In this document: positions 37,179 through 62,345 of the stretch, one piece after another
Layout: the number at the start of each line of letters is the position of its first letter
How positions within the stretch are numbered: position 1 is the first letter of the stretch
From: Candidatus Omnitrophota bacterium
Lineage (GTDB): Bacteria > Omnitrophota > Gorgyraeia > Gygaellales > Profunditerraquicolaceae
Reading direction: 5' to 3'
Assembly (NCBI GenBank): GCA_028717245.1
Contig: JAQUOD010000008.1
Coordinates: 2,493 to 66,492 of the forward strand
DNA length: 64,000 bases
Notes under the pieces: generated by a model
Databases searched by the model: none
Told to the model about the DNA's origin: nothing
What the model saw: the letters and a program-made list of their open reading frames with translations, nothing else
Program-made: the position numbers and the translations under genes

Positions 37179-37297
37179 AAATAAAATTTGCTGGTAATTT
37201 TAGGGGAAGCCGCTAAACAACATGGAATCTCAGGATCATTCTCTTATTTGTAAACTCTCAGGCAGTGCGTCAAAAAACTGCCGCAATTTTTCACTCG

Positions 37298-41319: not shown

Positions 41320-41574
41320 AAAACCCTCGCTTAAGCATAATCGCTCCTAGCGAAGGTTTTACTTTTTTAACGTCCGGGTTTCCCCCTTCAAACACGGGAC
41401 AACTCTAATTATTGAACTTACTTTATACCCATCTAAGCAATCTGTCAAGTTAATTTTGTACGGACACGCGGCGCACTAGTCCATTAAGAAAAAACTTAAT
41501 CCGTCTGGTAAAATTTGCCCATGAAACCTTTTAAATGGTTATTGTTTAATCTTATGGGGCGGGCGTGCTCGTCT

Positions 41575-41790
41575 CTAATGAAACAACTTAAAATGCACCG
41601 CGCCCTGGGCGACCGAGCACGAAGTGCGAGGAAGTCCTGAGCGAGCATCGCGAGCCGAAGGAGGGCGCTCCCACATCTCGCGTGCAATGGCGCTCGCTGG
41701 GCCGCTCGCTTCGTGGTAATGCAATGCGTGTGCGGCGTGGCTTTGCGTCCTCGCTACGACCTGTATCGACACAGATATCTTTTTACATCG
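41575..41790. repeat. Partial diverged copy of the central part of the 492-bp repeat (aaacaacttaaaatgcaccgcgccctgg...gcgctcgctgggccgctcgcttc...taatgcaatgcgtgtgcggcgtggct)
   Basis: Blocks identical to 43806..44030. The track ORFs 41496..41687 and 41575..41772 lie inside it and are probably spurious. Confidence 0.6.
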
Positions 41791-42038
41791 TCATGGTTTC
41801 CGGCTAACACTAAATAATAATCTTCGCCGTCAACCTTGACGACTACTCGCAACCTTATATCAACGCGAAACTCGTATTTATCGTGGTTAATCTTCTTGAA
41901 ACCGAATCCCGCAGGCAACTCACCTGTTAGGAGAAACGAGTTAAAAACCTCTAAGCTTTCTGCGAGATTATCTTTATCTTGGCGGGTGAGTTTCTTAACA
42001 GAGCGCTCAAAAGAAGGCAGAATTAAGATTCTCTTCAT
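41754..42038 (-). CDS. Type II toxin, RelE/ParE superfamily
   Basis: 94 aa; 4-nt overlap with the upstream AbrB/MazE-like gene. Confidence 0.5.
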   Translation of the reverse strand: MKRILILPSFERSVKKLTRQDKDNLAESLEVFNSFLLTGELPAGFGFKKINHDKYEFRVDIRLRVVVKVDGEDYYLVLAGNHDDVKRYLCRYRS

Positions 42039-42298
42039 TTGGTTATTTTCTTAATGTAACGAGAGAACTCTTTTCCCGGCTTCAGAACCTTTGCCTTGCC
42101 CTTTTCGTTTTCAACGATACGGTCAATGGCTTTCAGTTCTTGTGCAGTATAGCGTGGCTCAACCTTAACGGGGATAAGCTTGATAAAATTACCTTCTACA
42201 TCCACGGCAAACAGCTCATCTAGCTTCAGATGCAGTCTCTTCACAATTACGCTAGGAATAGTTATCTGATTTTTTGCTTTAAGCTTTGTAATAGTCAT
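42035..42298 (-). CDS. AbrB/MazE (SpoVT) family antitoxin
   Basis: KAKNQITIPSVIVKRLHL swapped-hairpin motif. Confidence 0.6.
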   Translation of the reverse strand: MTITKLKAKNQITIPSVIVKRLHLKLDELFAVDVEGNFIKLIPVKVEPRYTAQELKAIDRIVENEKGKAKVLKPGKEFSRYIKKITK

Positions 42299-42414
42299 CT
42301 TTTCACCTCCACAAGGAGTATACCATAAGTAGGAAAGTATGTCAAGTAGGAATTTCTAACTTTTTTACCTTTTGTGAGGGCCGGAAACCATGAGAAAATA
42401 TTGTGAAACAAGTA

Positions 42415-42645
42415 CGAAGTTAGGAAAGAACGGGCTCGACCGCTCCTGCTCCACAGCAAGAGAAATCCAGGTTCGCGGGATGCCCCGCCTTCCCGCAAGA
42501 AGCGGAACACCCGGCATTCATTTATACCGGGGCGCCTTGTGTTCAGTGCTTCAAAACCAACTGTTTGGGCGTGGCGCGGCCCCCACCCCGCGCCCCGCCT
42601 AGCGCTATCTTTTCAAAAACTGCCGTAATTTTTAGGGGGCGGAAA
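42415..42645. repeat. Partial copy of the 3' part of the 492-bp repeat (ggaaagaacgggctcg ... gcgcggcccccaccccgcgccccgcctagcgctatcttttcaaaaactgccgtaatttttaggggg)
   Basis: It matches 44041..44216 and includes the GC-rich hairpin ggcgcggcccccaccccgcgcc. Confidence 0.6.
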
Positions 42646-42700
42646 GCCAAAGCCCTTCTGATTTCAAATTTATGGCGGAAAACCGCATTTTATTAGCAAA

Positions 42701-43477
42701 TTAGTCGAGGCAATGAATCGAAACAGCCTTATCATGGCCGTTATTTGCCGAGGGTGAATATTTTACCTCTATACGCCCGCCGTTTTTAAGATGCCAAGCG
42801 CCCCTGCCTTTACCCATATCTTTTCCGGAAGCATCACGAACAGCAGTATCACTTACTATGTCTATACTCCTCATTTCGCCGCTGTCGGCAACAGCCGTTA
42901 ATAGCGCAAGCCTCCAATAGGGAGGCCTTGGTAACATCTTTTTGACTGATTCGACCCTGCCTGTAAAGGTATCCCCTGTCTGACCTGCACTTTCTTGAGC
43001 TAGCTGCGTTGTTTCGGCAGCCGCGTTTGCCGGCGTTGTTAAAGCTGCTGGCTGCGGAACATAATCCAAAGGAACATAACGCATCGAGGCGGCTTCATAT
43101 TGGCCGTTGTCACCGATCAAATATTTGATCTCCATCTTTCTACCTTTTCTCGGTGGTGCGCCGTATACTGACTTACCGTTAACATCAGTAATACGTAGAC
43201 CGTCTCTTGGCACCCAAATATCTTTCCTCTCGCCATTATCAGTAACAATTACAAACCTATAAGGACAGCGCAAGCTAAAAGTGACTCCGCCCTTCACAAC
43301 TTTGCCTATGAAAATATTGTTTTCAGCGGCATTAACCAGCATTTCCGGAACCTTTGCCTGCGTTGTTGATAAGGTTTTGGTTTCCTCGGCTTTTGCTTGA
43401 AACAATTGGATAAAAAATAAAGAACTGATAAATGTAATAGCACCCAACACCAAAAATTTCTTTTTCATATTTTTCAC
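42701..43477 (-). CDS. Secreted protein of unknown function
   Basis: Signal peptide; no motif recognised. Confidence 0.45.
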   Translation of the reverse strand: MKNMKKKFLVLGAITFISSLFFIQLFQAKAEETKTLSTTQAKVPEMLVNAAENNIFIGKVVKGGVTFSLRCPYRFVIVTDNGERKDIWVPRDGLRITDVNGKSVYGAPPRKGRKMEIKYLIGDNGQYEAASMRYVPLDYVPQPAALTTPANAAAETTQLAQESAGQTGDTFTGRVESVKKMLPRPPYWRLALLTAVADSGEMRSIDIVSDTAVRDASGKDMGKGRGAWHLKNGGRIEVKYSPSANNGHDKAVSIHCLD

Positions 43478-43570
43478 TCCATTTCAAACTGGTAAGCGGA
43501 TTCAGGCAAAATTTGTTGAATAGTTATCTGACGGATAAAATTGAGAAACAAGCGCGCTAAATTAGAAAAG

Positions 43571-43726
43571 AACCTCTCCCGCTATATCTACGCTCTTCCT
43601 CGCCTCTTATCGTTCTGTTTATAATACCGGGGTAAAACTTAGTCTCTAAGGAAACAGCTTAAATGCACCGCGCCCTTGCGACCGAAGGGAGTCCCGAGCG
43701 CAGCCGAGGGACAAACAAACCTTTTC
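43571..43726. repeat. Partial tandem unit (~160 bp) duplicated from the 5' part of the 492-bp repeat
   Basis: aacctctcccgctata(t/g)ctac...gtctctaaggaaaca(g/a)cttaaa(a)tgcaccgcgcc recurs at 43733..43835. Confidence 0.55.
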
Positions 43727-44218
43727 CCGGAAACAACCTCTCCCGCTATAGCTACACTCTGCCCCGCCTTTTGTCGTTTTTGTATCTAATACCCGGGTAA
43801 AGCTGGTCTCTAAGGAAACAACTTAAAATGCACCGCGCCCTGGGGGGCGCTCCCGTATCTTGCGATTCACCGCTCCCCCTCGCTTAGGGCTCGGGGTCGC
43901 TGGGCGCTCGCTGGGCCGCTCGCTTCTTGCTAATGCAATGCGTGTGCGGCGTGGCTCGCCGCTACAACAATAAAAAAATACACGGTCGCGGCGTGCGTCC
44001 TCGCTTGAAGCTCTCTTTACATCTTAAAAACAAAATTTTTTAGGAAAGAACGGGCTCGGCCGTAGCGCCTTAAGCTACGCTAAAAACTACAAGGACGGCG
44101 CTTTGCCCCGCCTCTTGCGTTCGGTGCTTCAAAGAACTGCTTTGGCGGGGCGCGGCCCCCACCCCGCGCCCCGCCTAGCGCTATCTTTTCAAAAAACTGG
44201 CGAAATTTTTAGAGGGAG
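43727..44218. repeat. Left copy of a 492-bp GC-rich, hairpin-rich inverted repeat
   Basis: Near-identical reverse complement of 50658..51150; only a few mismatches or indels were seen. Confidence 0.85.
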
Positions 44219-44338
44219 GAAATTAGAAGCATCCCCTTTTTACTTAATTATTATACCTCTTCAAAATAAAAATCCCAAGCAGATTCTATATGCTTGAGAT
44301 TATAAAAAATAGAAACGTCCCCTTTTCTTCTTAAAATT

Positions 44339-51490: not shown

Positions 51491-52939
51491 ATGAACAGAT
51501 ATTTCTTGTATGCCCGCAAATCCACCGATTCGGAAGACAGGCAAGTCCTCTCTATCGAAGCGCAACTTGCGGAATTAAGAGAATTCGCTAAGCGACAAAA
51601 CCTGTTTATTAAGGAAGAGCTATTTGAAGCGAAGACCGCGAAGCAGCCCGGACGAGAAGTTTTTAACTTGTTGGTGAAACGCATTGAGCGAGACGAGGCA
51701 AACGGAATACTTGCCTGGCATCCTGACCGCTTAGCGAGAAACTCGATGGATGGCGGGAAGATAATTTACTTAACCGACACAGGCAAACTGGTGGATTTGC
51801 GGTTTCCTACTTACAGCTTCGAGAATACGGCACAAGGAAAGTTTATGCTCTCGATTATCTTCGGCCAGTCGAAGTATTTTGTTGATAATCTCTCTGAGAA
51901 CGTCTTGCGCGGCTTCCGCCAGAAGCTAAGGCGCGGTGAATATCCGGGCTTTGCTCCTTTAGGTTATAAAAATAATATCCTTGATCACTCAATAGAAGTC
52001 GTGCCGGAAGCCGCGCATAAGATTAGAGAACTTTTCGAACTGTATGCGACTGGCCGCTACTCAATGGAAGAGTTAAGAAAATTGGCGACTGCCTCTGGCT
52101 TGGCCAGCAGAAGGAAACATGTCAGGCTGAGCCTTAGCAATATCGAGCGCATCCTCAAGAATCCTTTTTATTTCGGCGCATTCAGATTTAAAGGCGAACT
52201 CTACGAAGGCACGCATCCGCCGATTATAACTAAAGAACTTTTTAATAAAGCGCAGGTCGCGCTTAGGCTACGCAGTAAGCCGCACATTAACGCACCGCAT
52301 TATCATGTCTTTCGCGGTTTTATACAATGCGCCGAGTGCGGCTGTATGATCACTTCCGAAATCCAGAAACAGAGATATATCTATTATCGTTGCACTCGTA
52401 AGCGCGGCGGATGCGGGCAACCTTTCTTGCGAGAGGATGCGCTCGTCAGTCAAATTAGCGAAGCCATCGAAAAAGTTGCGATTAGCACAGACTTAAAGAA
52501 ATTTTTGTTTGATAAGATAGATAGCGAGGCTTCTGCTGGTCTACCTCCCTCTGCTTCTACCCTTGCCCTCAATAACAGGATTACAGAGATAGACCGAAAA
52601 CTTAATATGCTCTTAGATAGCTACATTAGTCAGGTTATAAGCGAAGAGGAATACAAGAAAAAGAAGTCAATTTTGCTCAGTGAGAAGTTAGAATTGAAGG
52701 AAAAATTGACAAGCGATGAGGGCAAGGGTAAAGTTTGGCTCGAACTGGCTCGAACTATTGTAACTTCTGCTGGCCAAGCCAGTTACATAGCGCGGAAGGG
52801 ATCGCTGGAAGAAAAACGGGAGTTTGTGAAAAAGATTGGCTCGAACTTTCGGCTCGCCGACGCTAAGTTGCGTTTTGACTACAAGTTACCTTATGTTTAT
52901 TTCGCCCAAAAATGGCCGAAAGAAAAATGGGGTGGCTGA
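51491..52939 (+). CDS. Large serine recombinase (resolvase/invertase catalytic domain, recombinase domain, zinc ribbon, coiled coil)
   Basis: YARKSTDSEDRQVLSIEAQ (catalytic Ser region), zinc ribbon CAECGCM...YYRCTRKRGGCGQ. GGAGG Shine-Dalgarno 7 nt upstream. Confidence 0.85.
   Translation: MNRYFLYARKSTDSEDRQVLSIEAQLAELREFAKRQNLFIKEELFEAKTAKQPGREVFNLLVKRIERDEANGILAWHPDRLARNSMDGGKIIYLTDTGKLVDLRFPTYSFENTAQGKFMLSIIFGQSKYFVDNLSENVLRGFRQKLRRGEYPGFAPLGYKNNILDHSIEVVPEAAHKIRELFELYATGRYSMEELRKLATASGLASRRKHVRLSLSNIERILKNPFYFGAFRFKGELYEGTHPPIITKELFNKAQVALRLRSKPHINAPHYHVFRGFIQCAECGCMITSEIQKQRYIYYRCTRKRGGCGQPFLREDALVSQISEAIEKVAISTDLKKFLFDKIDSEASAGLPPSASTLALNNRITEIDRKLNMLLDSYISQVISEEEYKKKKSILLSEKLELKEKLTSDEGKGKVWLELARTIVTSAGQASYIARKGSLEEKREFVKKIGSNFRLADAKLRFDYKLPYVYFAQKWPKEKWGG
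52842..52933. repeat. Right copy of the 92-bp inverted repeat (the last 31 codons of the recombinase plus the first nucleotides of the tRNA-His 3' end)
   Basis: See 51260..51351. Confidence 0.85.
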
Positions 52940-53007
52940 CGGGGATCGAACCCGCAAAACCTCTAGAGCCACAGTCTAGCGCTCTGACCGATTGAGCTAC
53001 AGCCACC
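52928..53007 (-). tRNA. tRNA-His (anticodon GTG) with extra 5' G-1 and encoded CCA
   Basis: Cloverleaf folded by hand: acceptor GTGGCTG/CAGCCAC, D-arm GCTC...GAGC, anticodon stem CTAGA/TCTAG with loop CTGTGGC, T-loop GGGTTCGATCCCC. Confidence 0.8.
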
Positions 53008-53018
53008 AAAATTATTTG

Positions 53019-53477
53019 TTATGCATGCAGAATAGCGTGACAATTACAGCATATTCTTTCTAAATTATCAATTTTATTATTTCTTCTATTCCCATCCTTA
53101 TGATGGACAATCAATACCCTTTTATCGGAAATCCCGCACCTTGCGCATTTATATGGAATATTATACCTGCGCATTAAATCACGGTAAACAGTTTCCCCAG
53201 AAATCCAATTTGGAGCATTAACACCATAACGGACATTCTTATTCTCCCAAGAACAATGGCAAGCTACGCCACAGAAGAATTTATTTCGTTTTGACCTTTT
53301 AAAATCTTTAGGCGTCCTCCAAATTTTTTTGCCGCAATAAGCACATTCAACCCATTTACCTTTAAACTGCGCTTTAGTGCGGCACTTTACGGAACAACAT
53401 TTACCCCAACCCTTTTTCGCATGAAAAGGCTTTACATAGAATTCCTTGCCGCAAATCTTACATTTTCTATATGGCAT
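53019..53477 (-). CDS. HNH endonuclease (Cys-rich zinc-finger)
   Basis: VHHKDGNRRNNKIDNLERICCNCHAILH HNH motif; multiple CxxC pairs. Confidence 0.75.
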   Translation of the reverse strand: MPYRKCKICGKEFYVKPFHAKKGWGKCCSVKCRTKAQFKGKWVECAYCGKKIWRTPKDFKRSKRNKFFCGVACHCSWENKNVRYGVNAPNWISGETVYRDLMRRYNIPYKCARCGISDKRVLIVHHKDGNRRNNKIDNLERICCNCHAILHA

Positions 53478-53571
53478 AATGGAATTCTATCAAAAAACGG
53501 TAAAAATGTCAATATAATTAACTGAACCACAGTCATACGTTCTAACTAATTAAAATAACCACCAGATCTAA

Positions 53572-54555
53572 TTAATAAAAACTGGGCATTTTGTTTTTCA
53601 GCGTGAAATTGAAGACCAGCTTATTCGTCTTGCTGATAGCGCTGAAAATATCCATTACCGTAGAAATAATCTTCTGGGCCTTCTCTTGCCCCTCCACGAT
53701 TTCCGGTTTCTTGAATACAACGTCCTTTAGTTCCAGCCGGCACTTGGAAACAATATCGCCTGCCGTACCGGTAATATTACTGGTCACGTTCAATTTGGCC
53801 TTTTCTATGTGCGCCTTTTCTATATCCACCCATTGGGAATAATAAGGGTAAAGATAAACGGCATCAATATCATTAATCTTTAGAGTGGCCTGCATCTCTT
53901 TTTTGAATAAATTCAGCTGGCCTTCTGCTTCGATACTGCCCTCCTGCTCTCCCTGCTGCCAGGGAATCTTTCCTTCTAATTTAAAATCCGTAGCTACCGA
54001 ATACGGATACAAGTAGAAATTGGTCAGGGTGAAATTTATATCTTCTACGGTAATCTTGATCCCCTCGCTGCCTACCGTATGATCGATAAAATATAACTTA
54101 CCCTCTTTTATACTTAAACGTTTAAACGCCAGAGCCACAGGGCGCGGGCTTTTATCCGTAGAGGAAAGGCCCTTTGTGGTTACTGATGCGGGGATAAGAA
54201 CAGCCGTATTGCCGGAATTGCTAGCCGCTACGGAGAGTTGCTTCTCATAGGTAAATTCCGGCCTTACCAGCCTGACATCATTTAAGACGATTTTTCCGCT
54301 CAATAACCCTAATACGCTCGGAGAAATAGAGGCATAATCTACTTTCGCCAGGCCTTCTATATTCAGCTTTCTGACCTCTAAATTTAAAGGCAGGGTCAAA
54401 CCGATATAACCTATATTAGTTTTCTTGCCTGTTAAATTCTCAAGCTGCTTGCTGACAAGTGTTTTGCCCTGTAAAAGCAAAAATACAGAAGCAAGCGCAA
54501 AGATGAACGCGAAACAAATAACTCCGATGATTAAGATTTTTTGTAATGTTTTCAT
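53572..54555 (-). CDS. AsmA-like N-terminal domain membrane protein
   Basis: TM anchor and AsmA-like beta-rich region. Confidence 0.45.
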   Translation of the reverse strand: MKTLQKILIIGVICFAFIFALASVFLLLQGKTLVSKQLENLTGKKTNIGYIGLTLPLNLEVRKLNIEGLAKVDYASISPSVLGLLSGKIVLNDVRLVRPEFTYEKQLSVAASNSGNTAVLIPASVTTKGLSSTDKSPRPVALAFKRLSIKEGKLYFIDHTVGSEGIKITVEDINFTLTNFYLYPYSVATDFKLEGKIPWQQGEQEGSIEAEGQLNLFKKEMQATLKINDIDAVYLYPYYSQWVDIEKAHIEKAKLNVTSNITGTAGDIVSKCRLELKDVVFKKPEIVEGQEKAQKIISTVMDIFSAISKTNKLVFNFTLKNKMPSFY

Positions 54556-54577
54556 GGCTTATATGGTTTAAATTATA

Positions 54578-54654
54578 TGGTGCGCCTGGGCCGGATCGAA
54601 CGGCCAACAACCGGCTTAGAAGGCAGGTGCTCTATCCAATTGAGCTACAGGCGC
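54578..54654 (-). tRNA. tRNA-Arg (anticodon TCT), CCA encoded
   Basis: GCGCCTGTAGCTCAATTGGATAGAGCACCTGCCTTCTAAGCCGG...TTCGATCCGGCCCAGGCGCACCA. There is one mismatch in the anticodon stem. Confidence 0.75.
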
Positions 54655-54672
54655 ATAAAACAAATTATCAAA

Positions 54673-54747
54673 TCGGGGCGACAGGACTTGAACCTGTGAC
54701 CTCAGCGTCCCAAACGCTGCGCTCTAGCCAAACTGAGCCACGCCCCG
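54673..54747 (-). tRNA. tRNA-Pro (anticodon TGG), no encoded CCA
   Basis: CGGGGCGTGGCTCAGTTTGGCTAGAGCGCAGCGTTTGGGACGCTGAGGTCACAGGTTCAAGTCCTGTCGCCCCGA. Confidence 0.8.
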
Positions 54748-54835
54748 TTAATCCTAACTAATTTAATACCACTTAATTATAACACTCAAAAAAAACTTTG
54801 CAAACGCTAAATTTTAGAGTAGACTATAATCAGTT

Positions 54836-57316
54836 ATGAAGAAAAAAATATTTATCGTTATCGCTTTGCTCCTTATCTTTTCCGTCTTCTGCGGCATAAT
54901 CTACCTTAATAATGTTTTCCTGCCCACTAAAGCCAAAAAACTCCTGGCCGATACCCTAACACAATCCCTGCATTACAATGTAGAAATAGGGAAAATAAAA
55001 TACAGCCTCATCAGGGGCTTTATCATCAATGACATTGTTATCTACGATAAAACCAAAGATAAAGAAAACACCCTGCTCACCGTCAAAGAAACCTCCTGCC
55101 ACATCCTCTTTTTGCCTTTAATCAAAGAAAGGAAAATTATAATCCCCGTAATACATATAGACTCTCCGTATTTATACATCCGCTACCAAAAAGACAATAA
55201 CTTTAATTTTTCGCGCGTATTCTCTCTTAAGGATAAACCACAGGATAAACCCGGGGTTAAACTTTCTTTCTTCATCTACAAGATAAATATCTTTAACGGA
55301 AGCGGCACCTTTCAAGACGAGCACTTCGAGCCTAAATTCACCAGAACCATCCAGGATTTCAGCATGGGCTTTAATCTTAAACCAATAGATAAAGTTGCAT
55401 TTTTAACCCAGGCTAAAATCATCTCGGATAAACAGACCATCACTAAAGTATCCGGCGAGGGAGAATACGGCTTTTTCTCTAAAGAGCTTAACGCAAAAAT
55501 CAGCTTAGCCAACCTTATTCTCCCCGAATTCAATCCTTATTTCAGGGGCCTGCCCTTTTCTATTGCCACAGGAGCGGTAGAAAACGGTAAATTTGAATTG
55601 AAATTTAAAGACGGCCTTGCGAACCTGAAAGGATCCCTTGCGGTAAAAGGACTGGCCTTAGGCAAAGGCAACCTGAACCTGACAGGGGATATTAATATCG
55701 TGCCGGAGTTAAGTTATGACCGTAAAAAAGACATCTTCAACTATCAGGCCAATTTACAGCTCCTGCAGGCTAATCTTACCGGGATTCAATATATAAATAA
55801 ATTAAATAATATTTCCGGGGACATAGGTTTGACCAATGACCGGATCTGGACGAATAACCTAAAGTTACAAGCGCTGGATTGCGCATTCCTGCTTAATGGC
55901 GCGATAGAAAACCTTATAAACCCTTCTCTCAAAGCCAACCTTACCTGCGAACAACTCAACTTAGAAAAATTATTTTCAATCCTACCTTCTAAACCCAAGG
56001 GTTTTAATTTAAGCGGCACCTCCAAAACCCGCATAGATATAGAAGGCCCCATAAACAAACTTCCCTTGGGCATAAAAGCGAACCTGGAATTAAAAGACGC
56101 AAAAATAGAGGCTGCATTATTAAAAGATCCGCTAAAGAATATAAACGGGAAAATCGATTTAACTACCGATACCTTAAAGTGGACGGATTTATCTTTTAAT
56201 TACCTGGATACCGCCTATACCTCTATAGGGAAACTGGCAAGCTTTAATGCCCCCCAGTTAAACTTTACGCTTACTTCTAAAGAACTGGATTTAGCCTCTG
56301 ACATCAAGATTAAAAATGACCTGATAAAGATAAATGCCTTGACGGGTAAATACCTTGATTCTAAATTCAATATCAAAGGCAATATTGATACGCAAGATAG
56401 GGCTAACCCTATGTTAGATATGTACGCCGAAGTTAACCTTAAGCCCGAAGACGCTTTCGGATTCCTCCCCCCTGCCCTGGCGGAAAATCTGAAAAAAATA
56501 AAACCGCAGGGTATCTTGAATATCAAAGGGGCGTTAAAAGGCAAGGCGCCGGCTTATAAAGACTGGGAGGCATCCCTGACTGCTACTGCCCCTACATTTT
56601 CCGTATATGGCCTGAAACTTACGGAATTCTCTATCGAAGCCGCGCAAAAAAACGGAATATTGAAAGTCGTACCGCTTACTGCTTCTGCTTATTCGGGAGT
56701 GATAAGCCTCAATTTTATATCTGATTTAAAGCCGGCCCTTCCGGAGTACGCGTTAAAATTTGACGCCTCCAGGATTGAACTGGCCAAATTAAAGTCGGAT
56801 ACGGAATTTAAAAACCAGGACATAGCGGGGACATTGAGTCTTACCGCGGATTTAAAGGGCAATTTTAACGGCCCGGACAGCTTAAAAGGCCAGGGCGCGA
56901 TTTCTGTCAAAAATGGGAAATTGTGGCAGCTTAACCTATTTAAGGGCTTGGGAGAATTATTTTTGCTGTCGGATTATGAAAAAATCGTGTTTAAAGAGGC
57001 CTCCGCGGATTTCGTGGTTAACGATAAAAACATCTCTACCGATAACCTCAAGTTAGCCAGCGACCAAATGAAGCTAAATTGCCAGGGTCAGCTGGGATTT
57101 GACGGGGCATTGGGCTTTACGGTCTATACCGAAGTAAACAAAGAGCTCATCCGCGACTCATCGGACATCAGAAAATTTACCGCAGCGATATTGGGAGGCT
57201 TAAGCGATGCCCTGACTATCAAGGTAAGCGGGACAATCCAGGACCCTAAATATAAAATTGTCCCCGTAGCTGCGGATTTGATAAAAAACCTTAAGGATTT
57301 TATTTTAGGCAAGTAG
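54836..57316 (+). CDS. AsmA family/TamB-like large membrane-anchored periplasmic protein
   Basis: 826 aa, N-terminal TM anchor, repetitive beta-rich body. Confidence 0.6.
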   Translation: MKKKIFIVIALLLIFSVFCGIIYLNNVFLPTKAKKLLADTLTQSLHYNVEIGKIKYSLIRGFIINDIVIYDKTKDKENTLLTVKETSCHILFLPLIKERKIIIPVIHIDSPYLYIRYQKDNNFNFSRVFSLKDKPQDKPGVKLSFFIYKINIFNGSGTFQDEHFEPKFTRTIQDFSMGFNLKPIDKVAFLTQAKIISDKQTITKVSGEGEYGFFSKELNAKISLANLILPEFNPYFRGLPFSIATGAVENGKFELKFKDGLANLKGSLAVKGLALGKGNLNLTGDINIVPELSYDRKKDIFNYQANLQLLQANLTGIQYINKLNNISGDIGLTNDRIWTNNLKLQALDCAFLLNGAIENLINPSLKANLTCEQLNLEKLFSILPSKPKGFNLSGTSKTRIDIEGPINKLPLGIKANLELKDAKIEAALLKDPLKNINGKIDLTTDTLKWTDLSFNYLDTAYTSIGKLASFNAPQLNFTLTSKELDLASDIKIKNDLIKINALTGKYLDSKFNIKGNIDTQDRANPMLDMYAEVNLKPEDAFGFLPPALAENLKKIKPQGILNIKGALKGKAPAYKDWEASLTATAPTFSVYGLKLTEFSIEAAQKNGILKVVPLTASAYSGVISLNFISDLKPALPEYALKFDASRIELAKLKSDTEFKNQDIAGTLSLTADLKGNFNGPDSLKGQGAISVKNGKLWQLNLFKGLGELFLLSDYEKIVFKEASADFVVNDKNISTDNLKLASDQMKLNCQGQLGFDGALGFTVYTEVNKELIRDSSDIRKFTAAILGGLSDALTIKVSGTIQDPKYKIVPVAADLIKNLKDFILGK

Positions 57317-57917
57317 AAATAATCGGCTTTGTCTTACGCAGGGCGCGGAAACGATGGCTCATCTTGTGTTTTACGGCAGGCCCCAGTTGCGCGAAAGTCT
57401 TTTGATATTTAGGGATGACGAATAAAGGGTCATAGCCGAATCCGAAATGGCCCTTTCCGGTAAAACCGATAAAGCCGCTACACTTACCTTCTGTAACTCC
57501 CACTAATCCGTCTTTATCCGCCAGGGCCACAGCACAACAGTAATGCGCCTTCCTTTTTTTAACGGGTAACCCTCCTAAAAGCTTAAGTAATTTTGAATTA
57601 TTCTGCCGGTCGCTCTTGCCTTTCCCGGAAAAGCGCGAAGAGTAGACGCCGGGCTTACCGCCTAAAATATCCACGCAGAGCCCTGAATCTTCTCCTAAAG
57701 TCATCTTTCGGGTAAAGCGAGCAATCCTGACTGCCTTCTTTATAGCGTTCTCGCGAAAGGTCTTGCCGTTTTCAATGATGCGGGGCGGCTTGGGATAGTC
57801 TGCCAGAGAAGATATTTTCAGCCTCAAGGGCTTTAAGATCTCTCTAATCTCCTCTAATTTCTTTTTATTTTTGGTGGCTACTACTAATTCTTTTTTTAAC
57901 TTCGAACATTTAAACAT
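57300..57917 (-). CDS. rdgB: Non-canonical purine NTP pyrophosphatase (RdgB/HAM1)
   Basis: LVVATKNKKKLEEI, ...GEDSGL..., FGYDPLF, SHR motif. Confidence 0.8.
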   Translation of the reverse strand: MFKCSKLKKELVVATKNKKKLEEIREILKPLRLKISSLADYPKPPRIIENGKTFRENAIKKAVRIARFTRKMTLGEDSGLCVDILGGKPGVYSSRFSGKGKSDRQNNSKLLKLLGGLPVKKRKAHYCCAVALADKDGLVGVTEGKCSGFIGFTGKGHFGFGYDPLFVIPKYQKTFAQLGPAVKHKMSHRFRALRKTKPIISTCLK

Positions 57918-57996
57918 TCAAACTTTCTCCCGCTCAGGCTTCTTATATGAAGGCGGGATCCCGCTGGCGTACTTAAATTACAAAGCGGGAAAACAT
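57906..57996 (-). promoter_or_regulatory. Structured intercistronic element, copy 1 (rph stop to rdgB start): four segments S1 tcccgct, S2 ggcggga, S3 tcccgctgg, S4 agcggga with alternative pairings
   Basis: gcgggatcccgc is a perfect palindrome. S1 is the complement of the rdgB Shine-Dalgarno GGGAGA on the mRNA. It repeats at 58726..58823. Confidence 0.5.
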
Positions 57997-58713
57997 TTAA
58001 ACAACATCTTTCAAGAGATTTCTCTGGATATCAATGAGCTCTGCAATTCCCTTTTGAGCTAGCCCCAAAAGCTTATCCATCTGTTCTTTATTGAAGGTCT
58101 TGCGTTCGGCAGTGCCCTGGATTTCTATAAATTCTCCTTTGCCGGTCATTACGATATTCATATCTACTTCGGCCTTGGAATCTTCTTCATAATTTAAATC
58201 CAAAAGCGCATTGCCGCTGACCACCCCTACACTGGTAGCTGCCACAAAGTCCTTAATGGGAATCTTATTCAACTGGCCGTCTTTTTTGAGTTTATGCAGG
58301 GCATCGGCAAGGGCGATAAAGCTTCCGGTGATGGAGGCAGTGCGTGTTCCTCCGTCGCCCTGAATAACATCGCAATCCAACCAGATAGTGCGTTCGCCTA
58401 TGGGTTTCATATCGATGATCGCCCTTAATGAACGGCCCACCAGCCTCTGTATTTCATAGGTGCGGCCGGAATCTTTGCCGCGGTGAATGCGCGTCTGGCA
58501 GGAACGCGGGAGCATGCCATACTCCGCGGTTACCCAGCCTGTGCCGCTGCCTTTTAAAAAAGGCGGCACCGAATCTTCGATAGAGGCGCTGCAGACAACG
58601 CGGGTATTACCCAGCTCTATTAAACATGAACCCTCTGCGTACTTAAGAAAATTACGGCTGATCTGCACCTTCCTTATTTTATCCAATCCCCTGCCATCTA
58701 AACGCACCATCAT
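57997..58713 (-). CDS. rph: Ribonuclease PH
   Basis: [45 protein letters not shown]... Confidence 0.9.
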
Positions 58714-58725
58714 CTCCTCGCTTTC

Positions 58726-58823
58726 TCACTTAACATTTGAACTTTTAAACATTTTCCCGCTATGACCTCTTATATTAGGGCGGGATCCCGCTGGCATACT
58801 TAGATTACAAAGCGGGAAAACTT
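58726..58823 (-). promoter_or_regulatory. Structured intercistronic element, copy 2 (fumarase-beta stop to rph start)
   Basis: Core gggcgggatcccgctggcatacttagattacaaagcgggaaaac is nearly identical to copy 1. In both copies the upstream gene's TAA lies in the conserved ttttaaac end. Confidence 0.5.
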
Positions 58824-59336
58824 TTAAACTTTATAAAGACTCTTTCCTGTTGCGTCTATCCCCACAATTAACGGAAAATCTTTCACCTCTAATTTATAAA
58901 TTGCCTCCGGGCCCAAATCCTTGTAAGCAACTACGGTAGATTTTTTAATATATTTTGACAAGAGCGCGCCGCATCCGGCATAAGTCAAAAAATATACTGC
59001 CCCGTATTTCTTTATGGCCTGTATTACTTCTCCGGAACGCCTGCCCTTGCCGATCATAGCCGATACGCCCTTTTTCAATAGTGCCGGCGTAAATTCATCC
59101 ATTCGGCTGCTTGTCGTGGGGCCGCAGGAGCCGATAACCTTACCCTTAACAGCGGGGGTAGGACCGCAATAATAAATTACCGCATCCTTTAAACCTGGAA
59201 GCGGCCTCTTCTCTTGTATTAACCTCTTATGCGCCTGGTCCCGGGCAGTATAGATAATCCCGCTTAATAGAACTTCCTCGCCTCTTTTTAATTCTTTAAT
59301 TTTTTCTCTGGTTAAGGGTGTATTTATTTTTTTCAT
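58824..59336 (-). CDS. Fe-S hydro-lyase (class I fumarate hydratase/tartrate dehydratase) beta subunit
   Basis: EVLLSGIIYTARDQAHKRL...GPTP..., about 170 aa beta region. Confidence 0.65.
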   Translation of the reverse strand: MKKINTPLTREKIKELKRGEEVLLSGIIYTARDQAHKRLIQEKRPLPGLKDAVIYYCGPTPAVKGKVIGSCGPTTSSRMDEFTPALLKKGVSAMIGKGRRSGEVIQAIKKYGAVYFLTYAGCGALLSKYIKKSTVVAYKDLGPEAIYKLEVKDFPLIVGIDATGKSLYKV

Positions 59337-59404: not shown

Positions 59405-60238
59405 TTATATGGTTTTGGGGGCGCTGCGTAAAGCGTGACAGCTGATATTTACCGCTACAGGCAGACCGGCGATATGCGTAGGATATGTCTCGATGTTTAC
59501 TCCTAAGCAGGTAGCCGCGCCGCCTAAACCCATGGGGCCGATATTCAATTTATTGATATTATTTAGTAAATCTTTTTCTAATTTGGTCGTTGGTCGTTGG
59601 TCGTTGGTCGTTGGTTTTCTTAATAACGCTTTCTTGGCTAAAAACATGGCGTAATCCGCAGTGCCGCCGATACCCACGCCTACAATGTAGGGCGGACAGG
59701 CATCCGGGCCTGCTGACTTTACTGCCTCCAGAATGAATCCCTTGATTTCATTGATGTCCACCGTAGGATTAAACATTTTTAGCTGGCTTTTATTTTCACA
59801 ACCAAAACCCTTAGGCAAGACAGTTATTTTTAACCTCTTGCCCCTGACAATCTCGGTATGGATTACCACGGGAGAATATCCGGGCTTACCCCTTAAGAGC
59901 GGATTATTAATTATAGAATTTCTCAAGTACCCTTTCTTATATCCTGACTCTACGCCTCTATTTACTGCTGACTTTAAGTCTCCGGAAATTTTTACCTCCT
60001 GGCCGATTTCTAAAAAGACAACCGGTAATCCCGTATCCTGGCAGATAGCCAATCTTTTTCTCCTGGCGAGTCCAGCATTAGCCATAATCGCTCCTAATAT
60101 TTTCTTGGCGCGCTTATTTGTTTCTTTCAAAGAGGCGATTTTGAGTTGCTTAAGGACATCCTTTCTTAAAACCGTATTCGCCCTGATGCATAATTCAGAA
60201 ACCGCGTCCCTGATTTTATGGGCCGGGATTATTCTCAT
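59405..60238 (-). CDS. Fe-S hydro-lyase (class I fumarate hydratase/tartrate dehydratase) alpha subunit
   Basis: AICQDTGLPVVFLEIG..., VGVGIGGTAD, conserved Cys. Confidence 0.7.
   Translation of the reverse strand: MRIIPAHKIRDAVSELCIRANTVLRKDVLKQLKIASLKETNKRAKKILGAIMANAGLARRKRLAICQDTGLPVVFLEIGQEVKISGDLKSAVNRGVESGYKKGYLRNSIINNPLLRGKPGYSPVVIHTEIVRGKRLKITVLPKGFGCENKSQLKMFNPTVDINEIKGFILEAVKSAGPDACPPYIVGVGIGGTADYAMFLAKKALLRKPTTNDQRPTTKLEKDLLNNINKLNIGPMGLGGAATCLGVNIETYPTHIAGLPVAVNISCHALRSAPKTI
59584..59615. repeat. 7-nt repeat (tggtcgt) x4 plus a partial unit inside the fumarase-alpha coding region
   Basis: tggtcgttggtcgttggtcgttggtcgttggtttt; encodes ...PTTNDQRPTTK... on the minus strand. Confidence 0.7.
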
Positions 60239-60633
60239 TCCTTCTTATACTCCCTGATAATGCTGGTGGTTATTCCGCCGCGGGGGTTGAATACACCCTT
60301 AATCTTTACCCAGCGCGGTTTACAGGCAGATACGAAATCATCCAGCATCCGATTAATCACATGCTCGTGGAAGATGCCGATATTACGGTAGAATATGGCG
60401 TACATCTTAAAAGACTTTAATTCTATACAGTATTTATGCGGCACGTATTCAATGCTAATATTGGCGAAATCCGGCAGGCCGGTCTTAGGACAAATGCAGG
60501 TAAATTCCGGGACCTCCAGGCAAACGGTATACAATTTGTCCGGATACTGGTTCTCCCAGACCTCTATGACAGGGGCCTTTAATCTACGGATATTTTTTTG
60601 CCGGCCTTCGTAACTGCTGGTTTTCTTAGCCAT
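60235..60633 (-). CDS. queF: NADPH-dependent 7-cyano-7-deazaguanine reductase
   Basis: EFTCICPKTGLPDFANISIEYVP...ELKSFKMY...FHE. Confidence 0.8.
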   Translation of the reverse strand: MAKKTSSYEGRQKNIRRLKAPVIEVWENQYPDKLYTVCLEVPEFTCICPKTGLPDFANISIEYVPHKYCIELKSFKMYAIFYRNIGIFHEHVINRMLDDFVSACKPRWVKIKGVFNPRGGITTSIIREYKKE

Positions 60634-60634
60634 A

Positions 60635-61312
60635 TTATTTTATCCCTATTCTCGCGTGCAGCTGCGGGATGATGCAGCTGGTAATATCATTTTCGCTGGC
60701 AATACTCTTAAAAGAATCTAATTTTGCGCGCATGCTATTTTCATCTTCATAAGTGTTTGGCTGCAAAATCAGGATGAGAAATTTATTTATCCCGCCGATT
60801 AAACTTAAGGCCCCCCTGATGTCCTCTTCTGTCGTGGAATGGCAGACTACTATTTTTAAGAACACCTCTTTTTTGGATGCCACATCCAGGAAACGGCGAT
60901 GGTAATGCCAGAAATCTTTTAATCCCGTGGAACTAGGCAATTTCAAATCCATAGCTACGATATCCACATAGTCTATAACGTCTTCTAAGGCGCTGTACAA
61001 TATGCCGTTAGTCTCCAAATAATTACTATAACCTTCTTTCTGAGTCAGCTTGAGCATCTCTTTCAAAAAATATTTCTGTAAAAGGGGCTCCCCGCCGGTA
61101 AAGGATATGGTGCGGTGATTATCATGATACAACTTCAGTTCTTCCAACAACTCCTGTGGTTCATATTCCGTGAAACGGTCTAACTGCGTATCGCAGAATT
61201 TGCATTTAAGGTTACAGCCGAAAAAACGCACGAAGATCTGTTCTTCGCCGAAATAAAGGCCTTCGCCCTGCACGCTGCTGAAGACTTCTGTAATTTTTCC
61301 TTTTATCCTCAT
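60635..61312 (-). CDS. queE: 7-carboxy-7-deazaguanine synthase (radical SAM)
   Basis: CNLKCKFCDT cluster motif; about 225 aa. Confidence 0.75.
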   Translation of the reverse strand: MRIKGKITEVFSSVQGEGLYFGEEQIFVRFFGCNLKCKFCDTQLDRFTEYEPQELLEELKLYHDNHRTISFTGGEPLLQKYFLKEMLKLTQKEGYSNYLETNGILYSALEDVIDYVDIVAMDLKLPSSTGLKDFWHYHRRFLDVASKKEVFLKIVVCHSTTEEDIRGALSLIGGINKFLILILQPNTYEDENSMRAKLDSFKSIASENDITSCIIPQLHARIGIK

Positions 61313-61314
61313 CC

Positions 61315-61989
61315 CTATCTGGTTATTAACGGATCGTTTATCCCGGCTTCCTGAAAACCTTTATGGCGGTAATAGCAACTATCACATTTACCGCAAGGGG
61401 ACTCCCCTCCCCGATAACAGGACCAGCTCAGGCCAAAAGGCACGCCGAGTTTACTGCCCAGACGGATAATCTCTGCCTTGCTTTTATGCAGTAACGGCGT
61501 AACTACTTTAATCCCTTTATGCTCAACCCCTGCCTTTGTCCCGCAGTCGATTACTCTCTGAAAAGCGCGGTAGAATGCCGGACGGCAATCCGGATACCCC
61601 GAATAATCCTCACTATGCGCACCGATGAATAATGCCTTTGCCTTTTCCGTCTCCGCAAAAGATAAAGCAAAGCTTAAAAAAATGATGTTCCTCGCCGGGA
61701 CATAAGTTGTGGGTATATATTCGCTTACCCTCTCACGCTGCGGATGCAAGCGGGGAATACGCAGATGCGTATCCAGGAGCGCTGAACCCTTGCGAGGTAA
61801 ACTGATATTCTCTATTATAATAGCACATCCTGCCTTATGTGCTATTGCCCTGGCGCTCTCAATTTCCCGGCGATGGCGTTGATGATAATTAAAAGTCAGA
61901 CAGTGGCACTGAAACTTCTGTTTTTTAGCCAGATATAAAGTTACGGCAGAATCGAGCCCGCCGGATAATAAGACTATGGCCTTTTTCAT
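61315..61989 (-). CDS. queC: 7-cyano-7-deazaguanine synthase
   Basis: AIVLLSGGLDSAV PP-loop; C-terminal Zn-binding CxxC...CxxC. Confidence 0.8.
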   Translation of the reverse strand: MKKAIVLLSGGLDSAVTLYLAKKQKFQCHCLTFNYHQRHRREIESARAIAHKAGCAIIIENISLPRKGSALLDTHLRIPRLHPQRERVSEYIPTTYVPARNIIFLSFALSFAETEKAKALFIGAHSEDYSGYPDCRPAFYRAFQRVIDCGTKAGVEHKGIKVVTPLLHKSKAEIIRLGSKLGVPFGLSWSCYRGGESPCGKCDSCYYRHKGFQEAGINDPLITR

Positions 61990-62345
61990 ATCTCATAATA
62001 AGAGGCGCAGCTGTTATGGCTCTCCCAGACCGTAACTAACTTAAGGCCCTTCACCTTTGATTTAAGATTTTTATAGATATATTGCGCGATATTTTCCGAG
62101 GTAGGGTTAAATTTTCGGAAATAAGCGATATGATTCAAACATTTATGGTCTAATTTTTCCAAGGCCATGTTTATGGCTAACTTTAAATCATGAAAGTCCA
62201 AAATCATGCCTGCTTTATCTAATTTCTCTGCTTCTACGCTGACTTCTACTTTCCAATTATGGCCGTGCAGCTCTTCGCATTTACCTTTGTAAGCGCGTAA
62301 GTAGTGCGCCGAGCTAAAATAGGATTCGATTTTTATACTATACAC
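61986..62345 (-). CDS. queD: 6-carboxy-5,6,7,8-tetrahydropterin synthase
   Basis: CEELHGHNWKVEV motif; 119 aa. Confidence 0.8.
   Translation of the reverse strand: MYSIKIESYFSSAHYLRAYKGKCEELHGHNWKVEVSVEAEKLDKAGMILDFHDLKLAINMALEKLDHKCLNHIAYFRKFNPTSENIAQYIYKNLKSKVKGLKLVTVWESHNSCASYYEI

Follow-up and report, generated by a model that had tools for sequence, protein, structure and literature searches.

Probable members of a dispersed extragenic palindromic repeat family at both rph junctions of a Candidatus Omnitrophota genome

Introduction

REPINs are doublets of repetitive extragenic palindromic (REP) sequences that are mobilized by tyrosine transposases associated with REPs (RAYTs) in Pseudomonas and other bacteria (PMC3337134, PMC3116915). 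Each contains two inverted short palindromes and a variable spacer, and the unit forms a hairpin in which the REPs are conserved and the spacers are non-identical (PMC3337134). Here, we analyzed a 64,000-nt stretch of DNA from a Candidatus Omnitrophota bacterium (contig JAQUOD010000008.1; hereafter the window), in which a 98-nt palindromic element occurs twice, once on either side of the RNase PH gene rph in a queF-fumA-fumB-rph-rdgB gene string. Our analysis indicates that these two elements are probably members of a dispersed, non-autonomous family of extragenic palindromes, similar to REP sequences, bacterial interspersed mosaic elements (BIMEs), and REPINs or to miniature inverted-repeat transposable elements (MITEs), that inserted at both rph junctions.

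The architecture of the Omnitrophota element resembles that of E. coli BIMEs. As in REP, BIME, and REPIN systems, a conserved short GC-rich motif is present in inverted copies with spacers that vary in length and sequence, and these can fold into small hairpins or a single long one. The elements are intergenic, often lie within operons, and are present in some relatives and absent from others. One P. fluorescens REP core, GCGGGCTTGCCCCGC, also has a GCGGG/CCCGC stem of the type found in the Omnitrophota element. The latter differs from REPs and REPINs in that it lacks a 5' GTAG tetranucleotide, has a unit that comprises four copies of the motif and a central palindrome with zero spacer, shares its core among ~45 species-level genomes rather than within one genus, and is sparse locally (two copies per 64 kb); no RAYT gene was found in the DNA searched. 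In addition, exact direct repeats flank the copies in the window, whereas transposition of the IS200/RAYT type makes none.

Bacterial MITEs (Correia/NEMIS in Neisseria, RUP in Streptococcus, ERIC/IRU, and Nezha) are ~100-300 nt long, end in inverted repeats, are flanked by short direct repeats, and lie at gene ends, where they are co-transcribed as hairpins and may donate stop codons, promoters, or ribosome-binding sites. The Omnitrophota family is similar in that the unit found in one genome (MHGF01) has a promoter-like end and that copy 1 in the window donates a Shine-Dalgarno (SD) sequence and an AUG. It departs from MITEs in that the conserved part is an internal core with terminal arms that are wholly different between genomes, the direct repeats in the window are unusually long and similar between copies, and the limited DNA searched yielded no parent insertion sequence whose ends match.

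Two further comparisons are relevant to this locus. Cyanobacterial HIP1 (GCGATCGC), small dispersed repeats, and tandem heptamer (STRR) sequences provide examples of a short palindromic core that is conserved across a phylum and nested in larger repeats. The Omnitrophota core is likewise nested in lineage-specific repeats, beside tandem 7-8-nt repeats, but the sequences are unrelated, the Omnitrophota core is not highly iterated, and GCGGGA shows no enrichment beyond the elements. Riboswitches, attenuators, and RNA thermometers share with the element mutually exclusive helices, one of which includes an SD sequence. The element differs from these in that it has no synteny to a regulated gene, is orientation-free, and combines variable loops with invariant stems; a ligand-binding RNA shows the opposite pattern, so such an RNA is not supported on this ground. 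The stems also resemble those of type I-E CRISPR repeats (CCCCGC/GCGGGG).

Results and discussion

Two copies of the element flank rph

The two copies and their parts are located in the window as follows.

57905-58002, minus strand: repeat copy 1, at the rph/rdgB junction; overlaps the rph stop codon and the first 13 nt of rdgB; family hidden Markov model (HMM) E = 4e-11
57928-57990, minus strand: conserved core of copy 1, with TCCCGCT at 57928, GGCGGGA/TCCCGCT at 57952-57965 (palindrome at 57953-57964), and AGCGGGA at 57984-57990
57905-57915 and 57992-58002: exact 11-nt direct repeat AACATTTAAAC flanking copy 1, the second including the rph stop codon
57916-57923: extra 8-mer ATTCAAAC in copy 1
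57915-57934, minus strand: rdgB translation start region, supplied by copy 1 (mRNA AGCGGGAGAAAGUUUGAAUG); the fourth core segment provides the SD sequence GGGAGA, with the AUG at 57917-57915
58732-58829, minus strand: repeat copy 2, at the fumB/rph junction; overlaps the fumB stop codon; family HMM E = 9.5e-12
58755-58817, minus strand: conserved core of copy 2, with segments at 58755, 58779-58792 (palindrome at 58780-58791), and 58811-58817
58740-58750 and 58819-58829: exact 11-nt direct repeat AACTTTTAAAC flanking copy 2, the second including the fumB stop codon

The surrounding genes are the following.

60235-60633, minus strand: queF
59405-60238, minus strand: fumA
58824-59336, minus strand: fumB, class I fumarase beta subunit
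57997-58713, minus strand: rph, RNase PH (PF01138, PF03725), with one repeat copy on either side
57300-57917, minus strand: rdgB, Ham1-family NTP pyrophosphatase of 205 amino acids (PF01725, E = 4e-60)

An initial annotation of this DNA had described a two-copy element with a near-identical core and four segments around a perfect palindrome, and each of these features was recovered. The copies are direct, 98 nt long, and identical at 84 of 98 positions, and their ~44-nt core, GGCGGGATCCCGCTGGC(R)TACTTA(R)ATTACAAAGCGGGAAAAC, has just 2 mismatched positions between copies. In the window, the 17-mer GGCGGGATCCCGCTGGC that they share is found twice, compared with an expectation of 0.07. In copy 1, the four segments (S1 to S4 in plus-strand order) are TCCCGCT at 57928, GGCGGGA at 57952, TCCCGCT at 57959, and AGCGGGA at 57984, and those of copy 2 are displaced by +827; the central palindrome GCGGGATCCCGC is present at 57953 and 58780. 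The element also aligns with its own reverse complement (E = 2e-8). No third copy was found in the 64-kb window with an HMM of the two copies or with two family HMMs.

Public Logan contigs (L199-L202; SRR22315506 and SRR22315508) are 100% identical to window positions 54724-58518 and 59588-62280, so the source organism is present in these data sets; copy 2 falls in the gap between the two covered stretches. When strain polymorphism was sought by exact-protein look-ups, two short Logan contigs were obtained per gene, and all were identical to the window.

Related elements are dispersed across Omnitrophota genomes

A family-wide scan was made of 8-kb blocks of genome_contigs, taking one genome per species, with the pattern TTTCCCGCT-N14-24-GCGGGATCCCGC. 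The scan matched 109 blocks. Many copies thus exist elsewhere at the family level, the outcome by which the initial annotation had said that its reading would be refuted. Chance matches, within genes of high-GC genomes, account for ~9 of the 109 blocks. The remaining ~100 come from ~45 assemblies, low-GC metagenome-assembled genomes (MAGs) labelled Omnitrophota or Planctomycetes-Verrucomicrobia-Chlamydiae (PVC). Nearly all of the hosts are labelled Candidatus Omnitrophota or Omnitrophica, or are "Planctomycetales" MAGs whose LigA groups with that of Omnitrophota; among them is Ca. Velamenicoccus archaeovorus, for which the genome is complete.

The family consensus is TTTCCCGC, a loop of 14-24 nt, GCGGGATCCCGC, a loop of 3-25 nt, and GCGGGA(A/G)A. 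The fourth segment lay outside the query pattern, and an exact GCGGG was present within the next 35 nt in 83 of 104 matches, compared with 4 of 104 for a control window. Family HMMs detected ~121 elements in 780 kb, and several genomes carry many cores (21 in 16 blocks of CAYGZJ01, at least 9 in MHGF01, and 8 in JBDRHJ01). The segments are invariant between genomes, and the loops and flanks are genome-specific; by loop sequence, the copies in L012 and L093 are nearest to those in the window. Because the stems are invariant and show no covariation, recognition of the sequence, beyond the fold alone, is suggested.

When either pairing scheme was extended into the loops at fixed offsets, the result was no better than that for shuffled sequences, and complementarity between loop 1 and loop 2 was insignificant (z = -0.7). 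Complementarity between upstream and downstream flanks was higher within elements than between them (z = -3.8). Tandem repeats in the flanks were enriched at lags 7 and 14 (z = 3.3) and weakly at lag 8 (z = 1.5). A universal 8-nt periodicity of the flanks was therefore rejected, and short tandem flanks are limited to some families (the window copies included). A DNA uptake sequence was also rejected, as GCGGGA outside the elements was observed 51 times versus 46.5 expected (z = 0.7) and 8-mers were not enriched. A loose, GC-only pattern gave chance matches alone on viral contigs of 66-73% GC and was replaced by an A/T-anchored pattern.

The Rfam scan that the initial annotation had also suggested returned no relevant family, either at gathering thresholds for the whole window or at E ≤ 10 for the region. 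Literature searches on Omnitrophota repeats or the core sequence likewise gave nothing relevant; within the literature searched, this repeat family thus has no prior description in Omnitrophota, an uncultivated phylum with small, compact genomes.

Some matches carry other taxonomic labels. A variant in which the last segment is GGCGGTGA in place of GCGGGAAA is present in L015, L019, L024, L065, L073, and L110; its hosts are low-GC MAGs labelled Gammaproteobacteria, and a tandem pair occurs in a MAG of Magasanikiibacteriota (Candidate Phyla Radiation). Full cores are also present in L076 and L083, labelled Chitinophagaceae and Ignavibacteriaceae. The family may reach beyond Omnitrophota, or the labels of those MAGs may be wrong.

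The elements are extragenic and have unrelated neighbours

In total, 79 of 95 elements (83%) are extragenic, compared with 17% of random positions, and the other 16 lie mostly within an open reading frame (ORF) of at least 90 amino acids, compared with 83% of random positions. Many copies are wedged tightly between genes. Among 66 elements with two called neighbours, the two genes are co-directional for 57 (86%), convergent for 4, and divergent for 5. The adjoining genes are housekeeping genes and unrelated (ispF, cysE, cysS, tmk, pta, ackA, pyrG, ligA, and valS), and where copies have asymmetric loops, their orientation relative to transcription is mixed. Several upstream genes terminate within the element, for example as ...F-S-R-stop from TTT TCC CGC TAA, and in about one-fifth of copies, a start codon lies 8-19 nt beyond the terminal GCGGGA(A/G). 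Recurrent neighbours were considered as partners of the element and rejected, as they are explained by synteny or by abundant housekeeping families. No transposase recurs among the neighbour genes. The initial annotation had offered a REP-like hairpin as a fallback, and the extragenic placement, the occurrence in both orientations, and the many family copies at unrelated genes bear this out.

The rph junctions of syntenic relatives lack the element

A protein-guided scan of metagenome contigs yielded 80 rph loci. In the closest relatives of the window (L119-L134; at least 13 loci, with Rph 72-84% identical), the fumB-rph-rdgB order is kept, the 3' end of fumB overlaps the rph SD sequence and ATG (...GGAAGGAGCATTTATG), and the distance from the rph stop codon to the rdgB ATG is 3-15 nt. 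The core was not found at either rph junction of these loci by sequence inspection, fuzzy matching, or family HMMs. Judged from this sequence comparison, the element is not a conserved regulator of the fumB-rph-rdgB operon.

In the two closest relatives, these junctions are occupied by different palindromic doublets, GGGACACCC...GGGTGTCCC twice in L120 and GGGACGTCTTTGAATCCAATC twice in L119, at these positions.

L120:940-1103, L120:1818-1990, and L119:3715-3790: other palindromic doublets at the fumB-rph and rph-rdgB junctions

Because L119 and L120 carry different doublets there, the fumB-rph and rph-rdgB junctions appear to gain such elements repeatedly. The L120 insert has ~15 nt of ancestral junction sequence (GGAAGRAGCATYTAT) at either side, an unusually long duplication.

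The core is nested in composite units and retained at ligA

In some genomes, the core is part of a larger, lineage-specific repeat, and the CAYGZJ01 and MHGF01 repeats are Y-shaped composites that share one layout but have unrelated arm sequences. The units are located as follows.

L013-L107, for example L014:1880-2080: CAYGZJ01 units, with one tandem duplication (L092)
L025, L032, L044, L046, L059, L084, L090, and L116: MHGF01 units

The ~190-nt CAYGZJ01 unit has A/T-rich 8-mer arms (TTTAGACT/TTTAAATT) and inverted ends (TAAATTCAAAG...CTTTGAATTTA). In the ~290-nt MHGF01 unit, the 8-mer arms are G-rich, the long complementary arm is C-rich, and the terminus is promoter-like (TTTAACA..N..TATTATAC); of 8 copies, 7 are oriented towards the downstream gene. 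The JBDRHJ01 unit is ~140 nt long, and all three units have inverted ends that are longer than those in the window and specific to the family. A second small palindrome, GCCTGCCTGCCGCAGGCAGG, is present in 4 of 8 MHGF01 copies and missing from the other 4, as if nested.

At the 3' end of ligA, the element is present in five of six orthologous loci (L057, L086, L096, L105, and L106), where LigA is 58-71% identical. Here, S1 encodes the LigA C-terminal F-S-R, loop 1 holds the stop codon, and the next gene has S4 (GCGGGAAGGAG) as its SD sequence; the loops show no similarity among the five filled loci. The sixth locus, L098 (3880-3910), is empty, and its genes overlap. Retention at ligA has two possible explanations, selection for the four segments or repeated hits at the site.

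Copy 1 supplies the rdgB Shine-Dalgarno sequence and start codon

As initially annotated, the upstream stop codons lie inside the terminal GTTTAAA of the element (rph TAA at 57997-57999 and fumB TAA at 58824-58826), and the mRNA of copy 1 carries GGGAGA 8 nt ahead of the rdgB ATG (57917-57915). Copy 2 was also said to abut the next start, and this does not hold, as the rph ATG (58713) is 19 nt past the repeat and has its own GAGGAG. The rdgB ATG arises where the extra 8-mer ATTCAAAC joins the 11-nt repeat. From this ATG at 57917, within the element arm, RdgB in the window gains the N-terminal extension MFKCSKLK; in relatives, RdgB begins M-E-L-V-(I/V)-A-T, and in the window this start codon is replaced by AAA. 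In Logan contigs, an independent gene call places the rdgB start at the identical position. The C termini of the upstream proteins also differ, with FumB ending SLYKV in the window versus SIYK in L120 and Rph ending KDVV versus DIL in relatives.

The rph stop codon and the rdgB AUG form the two feet of the long hairpin of copy 1. The predicted probabilities of being unpaired are 0.31 for the rdgB SD sequence and 0.41 for the rdgB AUG; after copy 2, the rph ribosome-binding site is predicted to be free (0.79). The earlier idea that the fold gates a ribosome-binding site therefore stands in part, as copy 1 holds the rdgB SD sequence and AUG and these are predicted to be partly paired, and falls in so far as it made a switch the element's reason for being. 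Because the hairpin would partly occlude the ribosome-binding site, rdgB translation probably needs ribosomes that are finishing rph to open the hairpin base and would then be coupled to rph termination. The consequences for stop codons, SD sequence, and AUG are best read as incidental or co-opted.

Alternative folds arise from four copies of one motif

For both copies and on both strands, the predicted folds are more stable than those of shuffled sequence (z = -3.5 to -5.9). Two mutually exclusive pairing schemes had been proposed, and constrained folding indicated that both are feasible. For S1:S4 plus S2:S3 and S1:S2 plus S3:S4, respectively, the energies are -32.3 and -34.8 kcal/mol in copy 1 and -37.7 and -30.7 kcal/mol in copy 2, so that the two schemes are separated by 2.5-7 kcal/mol. 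Because four TCCCGC/GCGGGA segments alternate, either one long hairpin or two adjacent hairpins can form in RNA or single-stranded DNA. The alternative pairings are the product of four inverted copies of one motif and are no evidence for a riboswitch, which removes a false lead.

The covariation claimed for the outer stem is not real. The partner AGCGGGAAAAC is identical in both copies, so the change from tttCtcccgct to ttttcccgct is one-sided; it gives a C·A mismatch in copy 1, and GGGAGA therefore arises on the mRNA. One true compensatory pair between the copies is present in a small loop hairpin (CTTC/GAAG versus CCTC/.AGG in the alignment of the copies) and, being one instance, carries little weight. 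An intrinsic terminator was considered and rejected, as a terminator scan flags neither copy and their tails (GAAAGUUUGAAUG and AAAAUGUUUAAAAG) have no U-tract. T-runs are present in some other families of the repeat.

Ends of the element and candidate routes of mobilization

The copies in the window have terminal inverted repeats, (G)TTTTCCCGC...GCGGGAAAA(C), and each of the flanking direct repeats (AACATTTAAAC and AACTTTTAAAC) is confined to its own two sites within the window. These 11-nt repeats look like a target-site duplication but may be parts of the element. Filled and empty orthologous sites are available at two places, as the rph junctions are empty in L119-L134 and the ligA site is empty in L098. 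No GTAG or CTAC was present beside the segments in the window copies or in the family consensus.

Contig L094 opens with the 3' end of an IS200/IS605-type tnpA (L094:1-96; ...YFASTVGIDEVVIQRYIEHQ...), which is followed by a perfect hairpin, CTATGGCCGTAAGGCCATAG (L094:1-200). It is the one IS200-like fragment observed, and its end hairpin is unrelated to the core.

Model for the two insertions and evidence that weighs against it

In the most probable reading, the two elements belong to a mobile repeat family, and one copy inserted into each of two formerly tight fumB-rph-rdgB junctions in the lineage of the window. The element would spread as, or be recognized as, a hairpin, and either a single-strand transposase that recognizes hairpins (RAYT/IS200 type) or an enzyme that makes an 8-11-bp target duplication would fit as the mobilizer. 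The copies would be co-transcribed in the operon mRNA as stable hairpins of about -30 to -38 kcal/mol, and they may be tolerated since folding-out joins the upstream stop codon and the downstream start codon. They may also shield upstream mRNA from 3' exonucleases, as REPs do, and the copy 1 hairpin would partly occlude the rdgB ribosome-binding site.

Several observations weigh against this model. AACATTTAAAC and AACTTTTAAAC are alike at 10 of 11 positions and lie in 8-nt tandem arrays, so the 11-nt repeats may be parts of the element itself. Within 64 kb there are just two copies, which are adjacent and may reflect local duplication. A tblastn search for a RAYT/Y1 transposase, with two Y1 transposase queries, gave nothing relevant in ~1.1-1.2 Mb that included the window. 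Finally, identity of the core over ~45 species-level genomes and its retention at ligA fit host selection better than pure selfishness.

Alternative explanations

A distinct, if unlikely, reading is that the four-segment core is a functional module, a double hairpin recognized by a conserved Omnitrophota protein, either a single-strand transposase that has been domesticated or a factor that binds RNA or hairpins. In its favour, the core is retained at ligA, is invariant across species, and keeps its place in a composite layout despite unrelated arms; if it is true, the core would represent a REPIN-like system at the level of the phylum or a structured element of a new class. Rather doubtful is an intercistronic RNA module under host selection, whose fold would act within operons as a barrier to 3' exonucleases, as an RNase III/E processing site, or in translational coupling through concealment of the downstream SD sequence, with mobility secondary. 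Such a module would account for a core kept at the ligA 3' end in five of six loci despite fully diverged loops, for start codons 8-19 nt past the terminal GCGGGA in about one-fifth of copies, for the partial pairing predicted for the rdgB SD sequence and AUG, and for the 86% of copies between co-directional genes, although this share is not clearly above the genomic background. It does not account for the mixed orientation relative to transcription, for copies between convergent or divergent genes, or for the junctions of close relatives, all of which lack the element, and stems that are invariant without covariation point to sequence recognition. The same invariance of four half-sites over genomes, together with the perfect central palindrome and orientation-independent occurrence, is what would be predicted if a dimeric protein bound the element as duplex DNA (as an operator or as the site of a nucleoid-associated protein or gyrase-type REP binder), with the 12-bp GCGGGATCCCGC at the centre and auxiliary half-sites. 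We regard such a site as improbable, as the outer half-sites lie 14-24 and 3-25 nt from the centre, spacings that are natural for hairpins and awkward for a duplex binder, no regulator gene recurs nearby, and the elements occupy the 3' ends of genes and the interiors of operons instead of promoters.

The remaining two explanations concern the rph locus itself. The initial annotation favoured a dedicated cis-regulatory switch (an attenuator, thermometer, or riboswitch) that uses two exclusive pairings to open or conceal the ribosome-binding site of rdgB, and the similar energies of the alternative folds of copy 1 (-32.3 versus -34.8 kcal/mol) and the location of the rdgB SD sequence and AUG within the element are in its favour. 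As the purpose of the element, however, a switch is unsupported and now seems very improbable, because the element is absent from the junctions of syntenic relatives and thus lacks conservation in the operon, is one of a dispersed family whose members lie beside unrelated genes in both orientations, has invariant stems and hypervariable loops where a ligand pocket would sit, leaves the rph ribosome-binding site untouched by copy 2, and matches no Rfam family, and because the claimed covariation proved not real. It is hardly credible that the two copies are cassette boundaries, either integron attC-like or of another site-specific recombination system, with rph as the inserted cassette. Direct copies of an imperfect palindrome with flanking direct repeats do bracket rph, but rph occupies the same place between fumB and rdgB in all relatives without the element and is therefore not an inserted cassette. 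In addition, the ends GTTTAAA/TTTAAAC, read directly, misfit the attC core consensus GTTRRRY/RYYYAAC, and no integrase is present nearby among the ORFs and domain matches of the window.

A dispersed repeat family would make this locus an example of how repeats can enter junctions where genes overlap and come to provide the stop codons, SD sequences, and start codons there. Its core is a useful marker when intergenic hairpins are annotated or breaks in Omnitrophota MAG assemblies are to be explained. Should there be a cognate enzyme that binds the hairpin, the family would represent a long-term association of repeat and host of the REPIN-RAYT type far outside Proteobacteria.

Other features of the window

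GC-rich direct repeats, each 30-60 nt long and unrelated to the element at the rph junctions, are clustered at positions 41500-44250 of the window. One of these repeats, GGCGCGGCCCCCACCCCGCGCCCCGCCTAGCGCTATCTTTTCAAAAA, is located at 42559 and 44135, and others are at 41567/43638/43802 and 41689/43903; a related 32-mer is present at 37272 and 38871. The cluster lies in a gene-poor stretch, in which small ORFs at ~41770-42300 look like a toxin-antitoxin pair. Closer to rdgB, positions 52928-54747 contain three tRNA genes (His-GTG, Arg-TCT, and Pro-TGG), and two DUF748/AsmA-like genes (53572-54555 and 54836-57316) are near these tRNAs, the second ending at the end of rdgB.

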